Source: a virus (Duplodnaviria; Heunggongvirae; Uroviricota; Caudoviricetes). From it: 38,978 nucleotides of DNA. Below are positions 10,021 to 38,606 of this stretch, in pieces. The stretch is from IMG/VR virus record IMGVR_UViG_2713896784_000029. One strand, written 5' to 3'. The translations under genes and the position numbers were made by a program. Numbering within the stretch: the first letter of the stretch is position 1; each line of letters opens with the position of its first letter. The notes under the pieces are model-generated. The model made no database searches and was not told where the DNA came from. It worked only from the letters and a program-made list of their open reading frames with translations.

Positions 10021-10446
10021 ATGACAGAAACTCAGATGAGCATGTTTGGTGGTGACAGTGAGCAACTGCACGCCCTTATCGACCGCCTTGATGACATCCC
10101 TGATGATGTTCTCAAAAAGAACTGGCCGCGGACCCTGTCTGAACTGGTTGAAGTCACCGGCGCAGAACTTCAGCGTCAGGGGATTGAGCCGGTACTGGCC
10201 GGTAAACTGGCACGCAAGGTGGCTGCGGCTCAGGCAGCCTATATGGGCGGACGGGGTTATTACCTGCCGGTCGGGGAATCTCTCTTTGCCGAGCTGCGAA
10301 ACAATGAGATATTTTCGCGCTGGGACCGGGGCGAGAAAATTGAATCCCTTCGCCGCCATTACCGGATGTCAGAAACCCAGATTTATACCGTCATACGTGA
10401 ACAGCGCCGTCTGCATCTGGCAAGAACGCAACCGCCACTTTTCTGA
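10021..10446 (+). CDS. Mor/C-family transcription activator
   Basis: 141 aa; C-terminal HTH region (SETQIYTVIREQRRLHL) and overall layout like Mu Mor/C; sits between gemA and lysis genes; RBS GGAGG. Confidence 0.7.
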   Translation: MTETQMSMFGGDSEQLHALIDRLDDIPDDVLKKNWPRTLSELVEVTGAELQRQGIEPVLAGKLARKVAAAQAAYMGGRGYYLPVGESLFAELRNNEIFSRWDRGEKIESLRRHYRMSETQIYTVIREQRRLHLARTQPPLF

Positions 10447-10517
10447 TATTCCGCAAAGCCTGCCGCCTTTCCTTCACCGTTACGCTGACTCAGAGAACAT
10501 CATGAGACAGCGTAACA

Positions 10518-18244: not shown

Positions 18245-18420
18245 TTGTTTAAGGTATGCAAATGCATTACCTTACCCCCTTCAGGCGCGTGTCGTGATTT
18301 TCTAACCTGAATTTAACGGGCTTTAAAATCTGCGTGAAGCGCCTTTGTATTTTTCCCCTGAAAGCACTTCCTGAAATCCCGCAAAACCCGCCCTGAAAAT
18401 TCCCGGCTTATGCTGCCGGA

Positions 18421-19545
18421 ATGAAGACGAAAAACACGCCCAAACTTGCTTATGCCATTCTGAATGCCATCAGCCTGTCCGCAGACGGGGACGGTGACTG
18501 GTGTCAGATCATGCCAGCCGGTCGGGTAAAGGCCCGTGACGGTCGCCCGGAAAAACCGGCTGAAGGCTGGCTGATTAACCGTGCGACCGTTGAGCGCATG
18601 GTATCCCGGGTTGTGGCGCTCAATCAGCCGGTAAAAATTGACTACAACCACCAGACCCTGATTAAGGGGCATCAGGCACCGGCTGCCGGTTTTGTGACGG
18701 CTTCACCGGAAAACTTCCGCTTCAGTGAAGAGCGTGGCTTCGAGGTGCGCCCGAAGTGGAACCCTCCGGCCCTTGAACATCTGCGTAATAACGAATTCCC
18801 CTGGTTTTCACCGGTGATTGGCTATGACGAGAGCACCGGCGAACCTGTCGAACTTCGGATGCTGGCTATTACCGGTGACCCCGGTCTGACCGGCATGAAT
18901 CCTGTCGCCGCGCTGTCGGCGGATGACCTTTATAACGCCTTAAACCCTCCTTTAAAGGATACCTCCATGAATGAGCAATTACGCCAGTTGCTGACAGCGC
19001 TCGGTCTGACCGTGGCTGACGGTGACGAATTTACGCCGGAGCTGGGCACGGCGGCGCTGTCTGCCCTCACAGGGATCAAAACCCGCGCGGATGCACACGA
19101 CAACCTGAAAACACAGGTCGCCAGTCTGTCGGCAGAGCTGGAAACCGCAAAAGGCACACCGGCTGGCGGCAGTATTGATCTGACGAAATACGTGCCCGTT
19201 GAAACGTATAACGCCCTGCGTACCGAATACGTTGCGCTGTCGGCACAGCACGGCAGCACCACGCTGGAGCAGGTGCTGGACAAGGCTGAATCCGAAGGGC
19301 GCATCTTCAAAAGCGAACGCGGCTATCTGGAACAACTGGGTGGGCAGATTGGTGTTGCGGCACTTTCTGCACAACTTGACGCCCGACAGCCGGTTGCGGC
19401 CCTGACCGGCCTTCAGACCGACACCGTGACCGTGCCGGATAAAAAGACTGCCACCGCTGCGCTGTCGGCTGAAGATATCGCCGCTGCCCATCTGCTGGGT
19501 AAAACCGAAGCCGAGTTCCTGAAAATGAAAGAGGAAATGCAATAA
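18421..19545 (+). CDS. head protease/scaffold (Mu I-like)
   Basis: 374 aa directly upstream of major head gene; Ala-rich helical C-terminal half typical of scaffold domain. Confidence 0.65.
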   Translation: MKTKNTPKLAYAILNAISLSADGDGDWCQIMPAGRVKARDGRPEKPAEGWLINRATVERMVSRVVALNQPVKIDYNHQTLIKGHQAPAAGFVTASPENFRFSEERGFEVRPKWNPPALEHLRNNEFPWFSPVIGYDESTGEPVELRMLAITGDPGLTGMNPVAALSADDLYNALNPPLKDTSMNEQLRQLLTALGLTVADGDEFTPELGTAALSALTGIKTRADAHDNLKTQVASLSAELETAKGTPAGGSIDLTKYVPVETYNALRTEYVALSAQHGSTTLEQVLDKAESEGRIFKSERGYLEQLGGQIGVAALSAQLDARQPVAALTGLQTDTVTVPDKKTATAALSAEDIAAAHLLGKTEAEFLKMKEEMQ

Positions 19546-20492
19546 TGCCTACCCCGATTACACCGGCGATGATCACCGCCCTGATGACGGGCTACCGTTC
19601 TGATTTTCAGGCCGGGATGTCCATGGCCCCGTCGCAGTACAAAAAAATTGCGATGACCGTGCCCTCCACCTCGAAATCCAACACCTACGGCTGGCTGGGG
19701 CAGTTCCCGCAGTTCCGTGAGTGGATCGGCTCCCGCGTCATCGAGAAGATGAAAGCCTATGGCTATGCCATCGTGAACAAAACTTTTGAAGGCACTGTCG
19801 CCATTAGCCGCGATGACTTCGAAGACGACAACCTCGGTATTTATTCCCCGTTGTTCCAGGAGATGGGGCGCGCTGCGGCGGTACAACCGGATGAGCTGGT
19901 CTTTGCTGCCCTGCGTGACGGGATCAGTGCGGCCTGCTATGACGGTCAGAACTTCTTTGATACCGAACATCCGGTTTACCCCAAAGTGGATGGCTCCGGG
20001 GATGCGCAGATGGTCAGCAATATGTTTGTGGCAAAAACCGGCTCTGTCGGCGCACAGGCTGATTACAGCGGTCCGGCCTGGTATCTGCTTGACTGTTCAC
20101 GCGCGGTAAAACCGCTGATTTATCAGGATCGCCGTAAGGCTGAACTTGTTGCCCAGACCAAAGTCGATGAAGGTCGCGCATTCACCGATAACGAATTTGT
20201 GTTTGGTGCATCCGCCCGTCGCAATGTGGGCTACGGCTTCTGGCAGATGGCCTACATGATGCAGTCACCGCTGACGCTGGATGCACTGTGGCACGGCTGG
20301 TCAGCCATGCGCGAATTTACCGCTGACGGTGGCCGCAAACTCGGCATTAAACCCACCCATATTGTTGTCCCCACCTCGCTGGAAAAACAGGCGGTGCAGT
20401 TGCTGGAGCGTGAACTGTTCGCAGACGGAAACGCAACCGTCTCTAACGAGATGAAGGGCAAGCTGGAGCTGGTTGTCGCGGATTATCTGTAA
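19545..20492 (+). CDS. major head subunit (Mu T-like)
   Basis: 315 aa, start coupled to I stop (ATGCAATAATG); followed by a GC hairpin. Confidence 0.7.
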   Translation: MPTPITPAMITALMTGYRSDFQAGMSMAPSQYKKIAMTVPSTSKSNTYGWLGQFPQFREWIGSRVIEKMKAYGYAIVNKTFEGTVAISRDDFEDDNLGIYSPLFQEMGRAAAVQPDELVFAALRDGISAACYDGQNFFDTEHPVYPKVDGSGDAQMVSNMFVAKTGSVGAQADYSGPAWYLLDCSRAVKPLIYQDRRKAELVAQTKVDEGRAFTDNEFVFGASARRNVGYGFWQMAYMMQSPLTLDALWHGWSAMREFTADGGRKLGIKPTHIVVPTSLEKQAVQLLERELFADGNATVSNEMKGKLELVVADYL

Positions 20493-33787: not shown

Positions 33788-34348
33788 ATGCTGATTGGCT
33801 ATATACGCGTATCAACAAATGACCAGAACACAGGTTTACAAAGAAATGCGCTGGAATGTGCAGGATGTGAGCAGATTTTTGAAGATAAAATGAGTGGTAA
33901 AACGACACAGCGGCCGGGACTGAAGCGGGCACTGAAGAAACTAAAACCCGGTGACACACTGATGGTCTGGAAACTGGACAGGCTGGGGCGCAGTATGCGC
34001 CACCTTGTTGCGCTGACAGATGAATTACAGCAACAGGGGATAAATTTTCGTAGTCTTACTGACAACATTGATACGTCAACCCCCATGGGGCGCTTCTTTT
34101 TTCACATAATGGGTGCGCTGGCAGAAATGGAGCGTGAATTAATTGTCGAACGGACACGGGCTGGTCTTGCAGCTGCCCGTGAAAGGGGACGAACCGGCGG
34201 CAGACCCCGTCGTCTCACGCAGGAACAATACGAGCAGGTCGGGCGTTTACTGGCCGGGGGTGTCAGTCGAAGACAGGTGGCACTTATTTTTGATATCGGC
34301 CTTTCAACCCTTTATCGTTATTATCCTGCGAGCGTTTCGGAAAAATAA
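33788..34348 (+). CDS. gin: serine recombinase, Gin/Hin/Pin/Cin-family DNA invertase
   Basis: 186 aa; MLIGYIRVSTNDQNTGLQRNAL... with catalytic Ser in RVST and C-terminal HTH (QVALIFDIGLSTLYRY); very close to Mu Gin as recalled. Confidence 0.9.
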   Translation: MLIGYIRVSTNDQNTGLQRNALECAGCEQIFEDKMSGKTTQRPGLKRALKKLKPGDTLMVWKLDRLGRSMRHLVALTDELQQQGINFRSLTDNIDTSTPMGRFFFHIMGALAEMERELIVERTRAGLAAARERGRTGGRPRRLTQEQYEQVGRLLAGGVSRRQVALIFDIGLSTLYRYYPASVSEK

Positions 34349-34447
34349 GACGCTCTCTTTGTTGGGCCTTTACTGAATTAACGCAAAATGGCGTTTATCG
34401 GTCTGTGGATATGATAATTCAGTTTATTCAGGAACAGGCTGATTATT

Positions 34448-36487
34448 ATGACGTCCAAATGGGTTCAACTATCATCAATGCCCGGAAACTTTACTGTTAA
34501 AGTTTCCGGTGGTACAGCGGCATTTCTTGAGGCTCCCTTTCCTCCGGCCGAAACAAAAGGAGGAATGACATTTGCTGACTGTCTCATCAGTTTTAATACA
34601 CGGGATTGCCTGTGGGTAAGGCCAGTATCCGGTGATCCGAGTGTGGAAATTACCGGAGCGGGTATTGGTGCGGTCATTCCGTTAAGTGCTGATGTTGCCG
34701 GTACTGCTGAACCGTCAGACTGGGATAATGCTGAAACACATACCCGTCCGTCAGGAAATGAAACTGCTTCCAGCTCCCCTTCCTGGTATTACGTGGTGGT
34801 TCTTGCTGGTCAGTCAAACGGTATGGCTTACGGTGAAGGTCTGCCACTGCCGGAGACATATGACCGCCCCGAACCGCGTATTATGCAGTTAGCCCGTCGC
34901 AGTACAGTCACGCCGGGAGGTAAAGCCTGTCAGTATAACGACATCATTCTGGCCGACCACTGTCTGCATGATGTGCAGGATATGAGTGGAAAAAATCACC
35001 CGAAAGCGGATGTGGCTAAAGGGCAATATGGCACCGTGGGTCAGGGGCTTCACATTGCCAAAAAACTGCTGCCGTTTATTCCGGCAGATGCGGGGATTCT
35101 GCTGGTTCCCTGCTGCCGTGGTGGTTCTGCATTCACGGCGGGTGCTGACGGCACGTACAGTGACAGCACGGGTGCTTCAGAGGACTCAGCCCGCTGGGGT
35201 GTGGATAAGCCGCTGTATAAGGACTTAATCAGCCGGACAAAAGCGGCACTGGCGAAGAACCCGAAAAACCGCCTGCTTGCTGTGGTGTGGATGCAGGGCG
35301 AGTTTGATATTGATGCGAAGCCGACGGAGCATTCCGCGCTGTTTCTGGCGATGGTGGAAAAATTCCGCGCAGACCTGGCTGAACAGGCGGAACAGTGTAC
35401 CGGTGGCAGTGCTGCTGGCGTTCCGTGGATTTGTGGCGATACCACGTATTTCTGGAAACAGAAAAATGAACCGGCATACCAGGCAATCTATGGCGGCTAC
35501 AAAAACAAAACAGATAAAAACATTCATTTCGTTCCATTAATGACAGATGAAAATGACGCGAATGTACCCACCAACAATCCGGCAGAAGACCCGGATATTG
35601 AATCCATTGGTTATTACGGCTCAACGTGGCGTAACAGTGCCGCCACCTGGACATCTGCGGACCGGGCCAGCCATTTCAGTTCATGGGCACGTCGTGGGAT
35701 TATTTCCGACCGTCTGGCCACGGCAGTTCTGACTCATGCGGGGCGAACCACAGTAAAAGCCGATGTTCCATCTTCTGAAACTGAAGCACCAGTGCCGTCA
35801 CCTTCAGAAACTGAAGCAGTAACCACAACACTGCTGTCTTATCGTGTCAGTGAGTCAGAAGGAAATCTGAAAGCCCAGGGCTGGGAGCCGGCTGGCGGTA
35901 AAGCTGAAATTATCAGTGATGCAGGAGGCACAGGTGGTAAGGCAATGAAACTGACCAAGGAAACAGGTAAATCATCCTGGTATCTGGATCATGATGCCGG
36001 TACTGGTGCTGAACTGCTGAAAAATGGTGGTTTAATCAGTTGTCGTTTTAAAGTACCTGGCGACCTGGTGGCAAACCAGTATGTCATGGGGCTTTACTGG
36101 CCGGTTTCCTCTCTGCCGCAGGGTGTCACCCTGACAGGGGATGCAGGGAATAATCTGCTGGCATCGTTCTACATCCAGACAGACGCAAAAGACCTGAATG
36201 TGATGTACCACAATGCAAAAGTGGCAACAAATAACCAGAAACTGGGAACCTTTGGTGCATTTGATAATGAATGGCATACGCTGGCCTTCCGTTTTGCAGG
36301 AAATAACAGCCTTCAGGTTATTCCGGTTATTGATGGTCAGGATGGTGCCGCGTTTACCCTGACGCAGTCACCAGTAGGAACTTTCCCGGTGGACAAACTC
36401 CGCGTAACGGATATCACAAAAAATGCAACTTACCCGGTGCTGATTGACAGCATTGTGGTGGAAGTGAAAAAAGCGGTAACAGAATAA
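34448..36487 (+). CDS. cargo SASA/SGNH-type carbohydrate O-acetylesterase (prophage NanS-p-like) with C-terminal beta-rich domain
   Basis: 679 aa; VVVLAGQSNGMAYGEG (Ser motif) and VVWMQGEFD (WxQGE.D) match the sialate O-acetylesterase family signature; SETEA-SETEA linker then ~230-aa beta-rich domain; located between gin and com where Mu has no gene. Confidence 0.6.
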   Translation: MTSKWVQLSSMPGNFTVKVSGGTAAFLEAPFPPAETKGGMTFADCLISFNTRDCLWVRPVSGDPSVEITGAGIGAVIPLSADVAGTAEPSDWDNAETHTRPSGNETASSSPSWYYVVVLAGQSNGMAYGEGLPLPETYDRPEPRIMQLARRSTVTPGGKACQYNDIILADHCLHDVQDMSGKNHPKADVAKGQYGTVGQGLHIAKKLLPFIPADAGILLVPCCRGGSAFTAGADGTYSDSTGASEDSARWGVDKPLYKDLISRTKAALAKNPKNRLLAVVWMQGEFDIDAKPTEHSALFLAMVEKFRADLAEQAEQCTGGSAAGVPWICGDTTYFWKQKNEPAYQAIYGGYKNKTDKNIHFVPLMTDENDANVPTNNPAEDPDIESIGYYGSTWRNSAATWTSADRASHFSSWARRGIISDRLATAVLTHAGRTTVKADVPSSETEAPVPSPSETEAVTTTLLSYRVSESEGNLKAQGWEPAGGKAEIISDAGGTGGKAMKLTKETGKSSWYLDHDAGTGAELLKNGGLISCRFKVPGDLVANQYVMGLYWPVSSLPQGVTLTGDAGNNLLASFYIQTDAKDLNVMYHNAKVATNNQKLGTFGAFDNEWHTLAFRFAGNNSLQVIPVIDGQDGAAFTLTQSPVGTFPVDKLRVTDITKNATYPVLIDSIVVEVKKAVTE

Positions 36488-36633: not shown

Positions 36634-36816
36634 ATGACATTCGTTCATACAATGCTGCTTTATTTCTGCGCTGTGGTCAGTGCGTTATATCTGGTGAGCG
36701 GTGGTTATAAGGTCATCAGAAATTATATTCGCCGTAAAATTGATGATGCGGCAGCTGAAAAACTCAGTAAAACAGCACAGGCACCGTCATCCCCAAACGA
36801 CCCGACCCCGCTCTGA
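36634..36816 (+). CDS. small membrane protein (single N-terminal TM)
   Basis: 60 aa; TM LLYFCAVVSALYLVSGGY followed by charged tail; AAGGT RBS. Confidence 0.35.
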   Translation: MTFVHTMLLYFCAVVSALYLVSGGYKVIRNYIRRKIDDAAAEKLSKTAQAPSSPNDPTPL

Positions 36817-36851: not shown

Positions 36852-37097
36852 ATGCCAGAGATTAAAGGCACGGTTACTGAAGAGCTTGTCAAACAGGCAC
36901 TTTATTCTGAAGAAGTGAACCGCGTGCTGAAGGCGCAGGTTCGCAAGGATTTTGAGGCACAAATCGACGCATATGTTGATGAAGTGCTGGCCCGAATGGT
37001 TGGCCGTTCTCCGGCTGAAAACAGCACGGAAAATGATCCTCAACCCGTAGAGCAACCAGAGCCGGTTCAGCCCGGAACTGACGGTACTATGATGTAA
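36852..37097 (+). CDS. small acidic hypothetical protein
   Basis: 81 aa with strong RBS AAAAGGAGAA; followed by a terminator hairpin. Confidence 0.4.
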   Translation: MPEIKGTVTEELVKQALYSEEVNRVLKAQVRKDFEAQIDAYVDEVLARMVGRSPAENSTENDPQPVEQPEPVQPGTDGTMM

Positions 37098-37106
37098 CAA
37101 TACCGA

Positions 37107-37140
37107 CCGGCAGGTTTCCCTGCCGGGTGAGTTTGTTAAT
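37107..37140 (+). terminator. intrinsic terminator after small cargo ORF
   Basis: CCGGCAGG-TTTC-CCTGCCGG perfect 8-bp stem followed by GTGAGTTTGTT. Confidence 0.5.
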
Positions 37141-37415
37141 GCACGTTTTGTGTATTTTCCCTCCTGGGAGAACAGGCAGGACATATCAGCATCCTGAAAC
37201 AGGAAGCATTTTTGGGTTTGTATGTCTTGCCATTTTGAGATCGAGAACGGCGATAGATGAGCTGTAAGGGAGTCTTACAGGCAGGGCAAACAGGCTCTTT
37301 CATCCATGATAAAGATCTCCTTTTTATGCATCTCTGCTTTACAGGAGACCGGGGAATATCATAGGATACGCCACGAGCTCGAAGTAAAGCATTGATGCAA
37401 GTTTTTACAGATTGA

Positions 37416-37454
37416 CCCAGCATAGTTCCAGCTATGCTGGGTTTCACTTTTATG
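37416..37454 (+). terminator. strong intrinsic terminator inside the 0.57-kb noncoding stretch
   Basis: CCCAGCATAG-TTCCAG-CTATGCTGGG 10-bp stem followed by TTTCACTTTTAT; no annotated plus-strand ORF ends nearby. Confidence 0.55.
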
Positions 37455-37640
37455 TAGTATCCTGTTGATTTGAAACATACTACATATACGCGTGATCCTA
37501 CCTTCACTGTATAAAAAGTCAATAAAATGATCATTTTATGATCGTTTTCACCACCTAACTCTTCGTTTTCTTTAAGTAAATAATCACCTCCCTGAATCAT
37601 TGTTGATGACTTTTCAATCTATTTGTTGTATCAATTAAAC

Positions 37641-37670
37641 AAATCGAATCGATCGTTTTTGTCGATCGAT
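37641..37670. promoter_or_regulatory. mom-operon regulatory palindrome with two GATC (Dam) sites
   Basis: AATCGATCG-TTTTTGT-CGATCGATT inverted repeat about 45-75 bp upstream of com; GATC at 37651-37654 and 37664-37667. Confidence 0.5.
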
Positions 37671-37714
37671 TGCATGAGAAAGGCATCAACAACAAAGCAG
37701 GAGGTTATGCGGTC

Positions 37715-37915
37715 ATGTATCGAAACATACGGTGCCGACACTGCAATAAGCTACTGGCACGGGCCAGTTTCAGTTATCTGGAAGTAAAATGTCCGCGCTG
37801 TAAAACCCTCAATCAAATCACATCTCCGAGCGCCACAGAGCACCCCACATACACAAGGAAATCCTGTCGTGGGGAACAGAAAGCAAGTCACATCCCGAAT
37901 CATCAGCACGCCTGA
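37715..37915 (+). CDS. com: Com zinc-finger translational activator of mom
   Basis: [30 protein letters not shown] parallels Mu Com (IRCKNCNKLL...IRCPRCK); ORF overlaps the mom start as in Mu. Confidence 0.8.
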
Positions 37916-38606
37916 ACTTATTCGCTATAACGACAATATCGTTGGTTATGGCTCCCGTGAGTTGCGGGTTGAGACAATAAGTTGCTGGCTGGCCAGACTG
38001 GTCATCGTCAATAAACATTACAGCCACCGTTTCGTAAATAACTCCTACCTTCATCTGGGCATATTTTCAGAACGGGAACTTGTTGGCGTAATGCAATGGG
38101 GTTACGCCCTTAACCCAAACAGTGGTGCACGCGTCGTAACGGGTACGCAGAACCGAGAATATATGGAGCTTAACCGGCTATGGCTGCATGACTGTATGCC
38201 GAGAAACTCCGAATCAAGGGCAATCAGTTACGCGCTCAAGCTAATCAGGCAGCTTTATCCGCAGGTACAGTGGGTTCAGTCGTTTGCAGATGAGCGTTGT
38301 GGCTGTCTTGGTGTCGTGTATCAGGCAAGCAATTTTGATTATGTAGGCAGCCATGAATCAATATTCTATGAACTTGATGGCGAGTGGTATCACGAGATTT
38401 GCAGGAATGCCATTAAACGAGGCGGACAACGAGGTGAACATCTGAGGGCTAATATTGACAGAGCCAGTGTTCATAAGTTCCGACAGTTTCGTTACATCCG
38501 GTTTCTGAACAAGAGGGCCAGAAAACGCCTCAACACAAAGCTATTCAAAGTCCAGCCTTACCCAAAACCACAAACAGTTAAAACTGGTTTGAAAGAGAGT
38601 GAATGA
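37869..38606 (+). CDS. mom: Mom DNA-modification protein
   Basis: 245-aa ORF immediately downstream of and overlapping com, last gene before the right end, as in Mu; exact start uncertain. Confidence 0.7.

Follow-up and report, generated by a model that had tools for sequence, protein, structure and literature searches.

A predicted NanS-p-family sialate O-acetylesterase with a distinct N-terminal domain between gin and com-mom of Mu-like Escherichia coli prophages

Prophage-encoded sialic-acid O-acetylesterases of the NanS-p family have so far been described only in lambdoid prophages, where they have a DUF1737-SASA-CTR architecture. Enzymes of this family from prophages of EDL933 (O157) and O104:H4 are experimentally active on Neu5,9Ac2 and on mucin O-glycans (review PMC8065619), and the expression of lambdoid nanS-p genes is late and dependent on induction (PMC8065619; Pascal 2023). 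According to a 2026 preprint (bioRxiv 10.64898/2026.04.10.717836), the NanS-p protein (gp84) of phage phi24B is structural: hexamers of its DUF1737 domain plug the central hexons of a T=9 capsid, and proteolysis at Ser/Pro-containing linkers later removes the esterase and lectin domains. The present analysis concerns a 38,978-nucleotide stretch of viral DNA (IMG/VR record IMGVR_UViG_2713896784_000029; "the window" hereafter means this whole stretch), which contains between gin and com-mom of a Mu-like prophage of enterohaemorrhagic E. coli (EHEC) an open reading frame (ORF) at 34448..36487 (+), with an ATG start and 679 codons for amino acids, whose product is very probably a NanS-p-family sialic-acid O-acetylesterase with an N-terminal domain unrelated to DUF1737. 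The protein is RefSeq WP_010917876.1, annotated there merely as "DUF6645 domain-containing protein", and databases already label many copies "sialate O-acetylesterase". In the searchable literature, outside of which lie two key subscription papers, no paper was found that pairs nanS-p with Mu-like phages, uses DUF6645, or links to an esterase the prophage Sp18, the described Mu-like prophage of O157 Sakai, which has been described as intact, with efficient packaging of its DNA (PMC2669165), and which the Sakai study found not to be inducible by mitomycin.

The protein is divided as follows (window coordinates, strand, residues).

34448..34687, plus strand: N-terminal domain, residues 1-80, a predicted small all-beta cupin-like barrel, particular to the NanS-p of Mu-like prophages and standing in place of DUF1737.
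34688..34783, plus strand: linker 1, residues 81-112, predicted to be disordered (pLDDT, the per-residue confidence of the structure model, below 50) and ending in ASSSPS; recombination and homology breakpoint.
34784..35743, plus strand: predicted catalytic SGNH/SASA sialate O-acetylesterase domain, residues 113-432, by its 3PT5 and Pfam SASA matches, with GQS123N, WMQGEFD at 281-287 and RASH409.
35744..35827, plus strand: linker 2, residues 433-460, with a SETEA...SETEA repeat and a PSPS motif, from sequence motifs and alignment.
35828..36487, plus strand: C-terminal lectin-like jelly-roll domain, residues 461-679 plus the stop codon, DUF6645, by its 6YP6 and Pfam matches.

A first-pass annotation made from the letters alone had read ORF 34448-36487 as a SASA/NanS-p-like esterase with a C-terminal domain that could bind carbohydrate, and both parts of this reading are upheld by the searches. 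The coordinates and all of the motifs that it had named were found (GQSNGM at residue 121, WMQGEFD at 281, SETEA at 443 and 453). Pfam SASA (PF03629) exceeds its gathering score at residues 116-312 (E 6.5e-12), so that the refuting outcome named in that annotation, the lack of an SGNH/SASA profile match, did not occur. The solved 9-O-acetyl-N-acetylneuraminate esterase NanS/YjhS (PDB 3PT5) is matched over residues 104-428 (E 1.9e-118). The nucleophile Ser123 of the GQSN block and His409 of the block IV RASH, one of the two published NanS/NanS-p variants of that block (RSSH/RASH), are invariant in an alignment of 14 sequences. At the other end, Pfam DUF6645 is matched at residues 524-642 (E 2.4e-69), and ~220 residues (459-674) match the solved C-terminal domain of a NanS-p (PDB 6YP6, E 1e-111); Y545, Y550, Y575 and F646 are the conserved equivalents of Y510, Y515, Y540 and F611 of vb_24B_21, the aromatics proposed for sugar binding in that protein. 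PHROG_143 is matched over residues 62-677 (E 0), and the NanS-p of Stx2 phage 1717 is 78% identical over residues 102-673 (BLASTP).

With the lambdoid/Stx NanS-p proteins (933W L0105/z1466, phi24B vb_24B_21/gp84, phage 1717 gp44) the window's protein thus shares catalytic and DUF6645 domains at 74-80% identity, the same GQSN/RASH blocks, the sugar-site aromatics, the DUF1378/DUF826 genes that follow and, probably, late expression; activity on Neu5,9Ac2 or O-acetylated mucin glycans would be expected from this degree of identity to a family with assayed members. Chromosomal E. coli NanS (YjhS, 3PT5) has the same catalytic fold and residues, but is a single-domain protein (solved chain of 337 residues) without the additional N- and C-terminal domains. 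NanS belongs to the sialic-acid catabolic regulon.

It is in the first hundred residues that the protein departs from its lambdoid relatives. Homology to lambdoid NanS-p starts at residue ~102; DUF1737 (PF08410) is not detected by Pfam, in the same search in which the phage 1717 NanS-p scores E 1e-15, and residues 1-101 have no sequence match in Pfam, NCBIfam or the PDB, in agreement with the earlier remark that the N-terminal ~110 residues are of another kind. Where lambdoid NanS-p has its capsid-binding DUF1737 head, the window's protein has an unrelated ~80-residue domain, predicted to fold as a beta-barrel, followed by a longer disordered linker. A PDB profile search with this domain returned chance-level IF-2 matches alone (E about 0.4), and fold comparison gave no informative match and none to a decoration protein, the weak Foldseek matches including PA14 carbohydrate-binding domains. 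No paralogue was found elsewhere in the prophage (best tblastn E 0.32). Among 50,697 phage records, tblastn found nothing beyond two Stx phages carrying an inserted Mu-like phage, and a scan of 185,579 species-representative genomes gave no match. An exhaustive HMMER scan of 1.84 billion representatives gave five matches: two are fragments that run on into a GQSN esterase (P0008, 29% identity over residues 2-103, and P0004, 57%), two are very short fragments, and the last, P0005 (a 1,445-residue Ala/Gly/Thr-rich repeat protein, E 3e-8), was judged to be compositional and of low complexity, and was not used.

The ratio of nonsynonymous to synonymous substitution rates (dN/dS) of the N-terminal domain is 0.10-0.13 against close relatives, and against a lineage in which the esterase is 66% identical the corresponding proportions of differing sites are pN 0.26 and pS 0.79; purifying selection was seen in all domains of the esterase. 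Judged by these comparisons, the N-terminal domain is real and under purifying selection. Many database entries begin the protein at Met11 (669 residues, which excludes 34448-34477 of the window); since residues 3-10 upstream of it (SKW../DEW..) are conserved in Shigella and Salmonella homologues, the 679-residue start at 34448 is favoured.

The window is otherwise a complete Mu-type prophage that encodes a Mu I protease, a gpT major head protein at 19545-20492, MuF, a Mor/C-family activator at 10021-10446, GemA and a Mu-type baseplate. Upstream of the esterase gene come an invertible tail-fibre/assembly segment and then gin; downstream of it are com and mom. Phage Mu itself (reference AF083977) has the end of gin at 35673 and the start of com at 35768, with just the Pmom promoter in the intervening 94 bp, so that the earlier statement that canonical Mu has no gene at this site is correct. 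The DNA that is extra relative to Mu forms a ~3.3-kb block with four ORFs, extending from the gin stop at 34348 to ~37630. Besides the esterase gene, the features of the block and of its borders are the following.

33788..34348, plus strand: gin, the G-segment serine invertase (Pfam Resolvase and HTH_7; RefSeq "recombinase family protein"); left boundary of the block.
36634..36816, plus strand: small DUF1378 protein with a hydrophobic N-terminal stretch (Pfam E 1.2e-38); cassette partner.
36852..37097, plus strand: small DUF826 protein (Pfam E 2.8e-15); cassette partner.
37136..37600, minus strand: hypothetical ORF of 154 residues with CxxC...CxxC (phrog_26524); last ORF of the extra block.
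37640..37690, plus strand: retained Pmom upstream region with a GATC cluster, aligning with the Mu gin-com intergenic region; right boundary of the block.
37715..37915 and 37869..38606, plus strand: com (RefSeq coordinates) and mom (Pfam Zn_ribbon_Com and Mom; RefSeq annotation).

The GATC cluster, whose sites have the Dam/OxyR role in Mu, is kept directly before com, and the block is accordingly bordered by gin on one side and by an intact mom control region on the other. With the right ends of Mu, D108 and SfMu the window shares tail fibre, invertible segment, gin, com-mom and the Pmom GATC cluster, but gin and com are 94 bp apart in Mu and the gin-mom PCR product of SfMu is 1.5 kb, and neither has the cassette. 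The first-pass description of an inserted cargo gene therefore holds in that the DNA is extra relative to Mu, and falls short in speaking of a single gene: the block has four ORFs, with a conserved esterase-DUF1378-DUF826 cassette and its own late-promoter-like element. PADLOC defence-system profiles gave no match for any of the four cassette proteins. The minus-strand ORF is frameshifted in some strains, and within it, at 37414-37443, lies a hairpin with a 13-bp stem and a T-run, at which plus-strand transcripts arriving from the esterase cassette would end.

The succession of nanS-p and DUF1378 and/or DUF826 is also the late-region order of lambdoid Stx phages: a DUF826 protein follows nanS-p in phage 1717, DUF1378 lies directly downstream of nanS-p in phage ASU11, and DUF826/DUF1378 genes sit between nanS-p and S (Pascal 2023). 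The location in the genome differs, lambdoid nanS-p lying between stx/Q and the holin gene S and the window's gene between gin and com-mom of a transposable Mu-like myovirus. Homologues of the DUF1378 protein at ~54% amino acid identity were found in 309 mostly Stx/lambdoid phage records, and this protein may be a functional partner of the esterase. Between lambdoid and Mu-like phages it is far more diverged (~54%) than the esterase payload (~78%). At the DNA level, similarity to lambdoid phages ends where the esterase gene ends.

The segment coding for the N-terminal domain was present in 205 of 5,426 complete E. coli genomes, and the baseplate genes of the window's Mu-like lineage in 229; given these two counts, the cassette is close to a core feature of this lineage. 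Of the 207 matching records, 172 have the segment at 99% identity or more, and many O157:H7 and O26 genomes share a 5-kb region at 100% identity. As had been proposed in the first-pass annotation, Mu-like prophages were compared at the gin-com junction: the cassette occupies the same site in a subgroup of E. coli and Shigella sonnei Mu-like prophages with an esterase of 66% identity, in prophages without gin, and in a Salmonella enterica Mu-like prophage whose N-terminal domain is 29% identical. The order esterase-DUF1378-DUF826 is kept in the compared loci L001, L003, L004 and L006-L012.

Other variations were seen around these prophages. In the 66% lineage (L007:12783-14844, L009:4367-5573) com is followed not by Mom but by a 350-residue C5 cytosine DNA methyltransferase (PF00145), which means that the Mu right end has exchanged its anti-restriction module. 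In E. coli O157:H7 FRIK944 (L001:8036-10320) the prophage right end abuts a truncated amidohydrolase pseudogene upstream of ureE-ureF-ureG, and the prophage is apparently inserted into the urease gene cluster; in other strains it is found beside type VI secretion system genes, beside an autotransporter gene or beside flagellar-type genes of the fliE/fliF/fliP family, a variety of sites to be expected of a transposing phage. Annotations also place this Mu-like phage, at 95.9% identity over the gin-to-cassette region, within Stx2c- and Stx1a-converting prophages (LC727881.1, 36879-41065; LC727895.1, 40041-44227), which gives composite prophages of ~93 kb with two nanS-p architectures.

In all contexts examined the new N-terminal domain was found on Mu-like prophages and DUF1737 on lambdoid DNA, with P0075 as the sole apparent exception. 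Behind the N-terminal domain the payload varies. In STEC799 (L003:6091-8148, NZ_CP173115.1) the backbone and the N-terminal domain are 95-98% identical to the window up to ~34790, after which DNA identity falls to 60-70% in the catalytic domain and to 30-55% in the lectin domain and DUF1378, and returns to ~100% inside DUF826; by these identities a different payload is installed behind the same N-terminal domain, a pattern that fits a design of adaptor and exchangeable payload. The STEC799 payload, a third type, is only ~68% (catalytic domain) and ~40% (C-terminal domain) identical to any NanS-p retrieved, and its C-terminal domain may be a new lectin class with a different glycan specificity.

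P0075 (L013:608-2539, GCA_012426925.1) is a hybrid nanS-p: it starts with DUF1737, its 5' half is lambdoid (98% identity to lambdoid phages), and beyond a join at residue ~252 its 3' half is the same as that of the Mu-like gene. DUF1378, DUF826, the minus-strand ORF, com and mom follow it, and the gene lies 607 bp from a contig end. This suggests that a lambdoid and a Mu-like prophage recombined by way of the homology of their esterase genes, or that the sequence is an assembly chimera. It was rejected as a counter-example to the association of domain and phage type: the upstream flank is lambdoid, as is the 5' half (98%), and the join is either a recombination junction or an assembly artefact of this kind.

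Such exchanges, together with the many lambdoid nanS-p copies per EHEC genome, speak for the window's gene being a recent, functionally irrelevant insertion or a decaying remnant from a co-resident lambdoid prophage. The conservation data already contradict this explanation, which we regard as very improbable: the ORF is intact with a nearly invariant N-terminal segment in most records, all domains are under purifying selection, and the same architecture is kept in lineages diverged to 66% and 29% identity in three host genera.

Upstream of the esterase gene, the ~90 bp that are conserved across lineages contain the following element, which is kept in L007, L011 and L004, including where gin is absent.

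34373..34415, plus strand: putative C-activator-dependent late promoter of the cassette, consisting of a box, a 21-nucleotide spacer and a -10-like TATGAT at 34410-34415, with no -35.

The box is CTGAATTAACGCAAAA (34373-34388). With up to 3 mismatches this 16-mer has one other match in the window, at 18371-18386, between G and I and ahead of the Mu I protease gene, followed by N22 and TATGCT, which is the position of P_I. A third, looser copy (CTGATATTCCGCAAAG-N22-TACGCT, 10443-10458) comes right after the Mor/C-family gene, in the position of Plys, and aligns with the annotated Plys core of Mu; all three sites resemble the core of C-dependent Mu promoters. A generic sigma-70 scan found promoter-like sites to be no commoner than in shuffled sequences and was not used as evidence. 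From the conservation, position and spacing of the element, it is on balance probable that the cassette is a conserved C-activated late transcription unit; control would then differ from the Q antitermination of the lambdoid genes. By eye, no signal-peptide-like hydrophobic stretch was seen at the N-terminus of the esterase, and exit from the cell would therefore need lysis or incorporation into particles.

These observations can be assembled into an explanation that, taken as a whole, we favour with a confidence a little better than even. A C-activator-type promoter of its own would drive transcription of the cassette late in the lytic cycle, from which it would follow that the enzyme is made alongside the virion and lysis proteins and not in the quiescent lysogen. 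The protein would act through three modules: the N-terminal barrel, a central SGNH/SASA domain that would strip sialic acids (Neu5,9Ac2), whether free or carried by mucin glycans, of their 9-O-acetyl groups, and a lectin-like jelly-roll domain presumed to direct the enzyme to glycans. The barrel and its flexible linker would be the Mu-lineage counterpart of DUF1737, a phage-type-specific adaptor tethering an exchangeable esterase and lectin payload to the Mu-type virion; without tethering, the enzyme would simply exit the cell at lysis. Tethered or not, it would bring about a local de-O-acetylation of gut mucin sialic acids, to the benefit of the surviving lysogen population (as a carbon source) and possibly of phage behaviour in mucus.

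The case for tethering starts from phi24B. DUF1737 being the capsid anchor of that phage, the module replaced in the Mu-like protein is exactly the capsid anchor. Both proteins consist of a small N-terminal module, a flexible Ser/Pro linker, the esterase, a second linker and the lectin, with SSP/SPS-type motifs in the linkers, and by analogy only, linker 2 is equivalent in position to the reported autoproteolysis site of gp84. They differ in that the phi24B anchor is made of one helix and three strands whereas the window's N-terminal domain is predicted to be a cupin-like all-beta barrel, in that the SSP motif of linker 1 is unconserved in other Mu-type lineages, and in that virion association has been demonstrated for gp84 and is here a hypothesis. 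The SSSPS of linker 1 was also considered as a conserved autoprocessing site comparable to the SISSP of phi24B, and was set aside as a weak lead, being unconserved in the 66% lineage and in the Salmonella protein. No virion proteomics of Sp18-type phages was found in the searchable literature. That the N-terminal domain anchors the esterase to the virion is accordingly put forward as a tentative hypothesis, plausible while short of probable, and its extension, in which the barrel would be a new virion-docking module of Mu-type myoviruses, convergent with the DUF1737 of lambdoid podoviruses, is possible but speculative.

The N-terminal domain could also be read as an accessory carbohydrate-binding or oligomerisation domain of a soluble moron enzyme that has no link to the virion, is released at lysis or by leaking, and helps lysogens to use O-acetylated sialic acids, its restriction to Mu-like prophages resulting from vertical inheritance and limits to recombination. 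This agrees with the function proposed for NanS-p in publications and with the fact that small domains of beta-sandwich or cupin-like fold often serve to bind sugars or to dimerise, to which the weak PA14 matches and the want of a fold match to a decoration protein can be added, and breakpoints at the domain junction would be expected from homology limits alone. Yet a capsid anchor occupies the corresponding N-terminal position in phi24B, the sole phage examined structurally, and the domain was never seen alone or fused to a non-esterase (discounting the low-complexity repeat protein), while it is conserved, with a dN/dS of ~0.1, down to the 29% identity of the Salmonella Mu-like prophage at the same locus. 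We therefore hold the soluble enzyme to be rather unlikely as the full account.

A virion-borne enzyme could, alternatively, be attached by the N-terminal domain to the baseplate or tail fibres and deacetylate O-antigen or capsule at adsorption, in the manner of esterase tailspikes. This is improbable: lambdoid NanS-p enzymes, with which the catalytic and lectin domains share 78% identity, have been measured to act on sialic acids and mucin glycans, the payload is exchanged freely among sipho-, podo- and myoviruses with unrelated tails, and the phi24B protein is on the capsid, not on the tail. The first-pass annotation had offered a lysogenic-conversion enzyme or a virion-associated receptor-modifying enzyme; the late-type promoter, the absence of a visible signal peptide, the phage-specific N-terminal domain and the phi24B precedent lean to expression in the lytic cycle and possibly to association with the virion, and receptor modification is the least supported of these options.

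Several points weigh against the explanation of a late, tethered sialate O-acetylesterase. Both the co-segregation of the N-terminal domain with the Mu backbone and the breakpoints at the junction can be explained without function, because homologous exchange with lambdoid alleles crosses over only where there is homology, from the catalytic domain onward. The promoter assignment rests on three short sites: the number of boxes by itself is insignificant (0.32 expected per window), only positions and spacing being telling, and no equivalent box was found in the window at the expected P_P and Pmom positions. Substrate specificity is extrapolated from enzymes of 66-78% identity, and the full-length AlphaFold2 model (mean pLDDT 51, catalytic domain largely below 50) is too low in confidence for active-site geometry to be read from it.

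The locus represents a second NanS-p architecture, fixed in a Mu-like lineage that about 4% of the complete E. coli genomes carry, O157:H7, O26 and O111 strains among them. Counts of nanS-p alleles, as well as deletion studies restricted to lambdoid copies, may for this reason overlook one active copy. The esterase genes would act as homology patches through which Mu-like and lambdoid prophages recombine, adding to EHEC genome rearrangement. The clean swap of DUF1737 in a phage of different morphotype constitutes a natural experiment, and offers a second, independent system in which to ask if NanS-p belongs to the virion or serves in lysogenic conversion. If the barrel is indeed a docking module, unrelated EHEC phage morphotypes would display the same exchangeable esterase/lectin payload through morphotype-specific adaptors, and NanS-p would be primarily a phage structural or mucus-interaction protein rather than a lysogenic-conversion enzyme.

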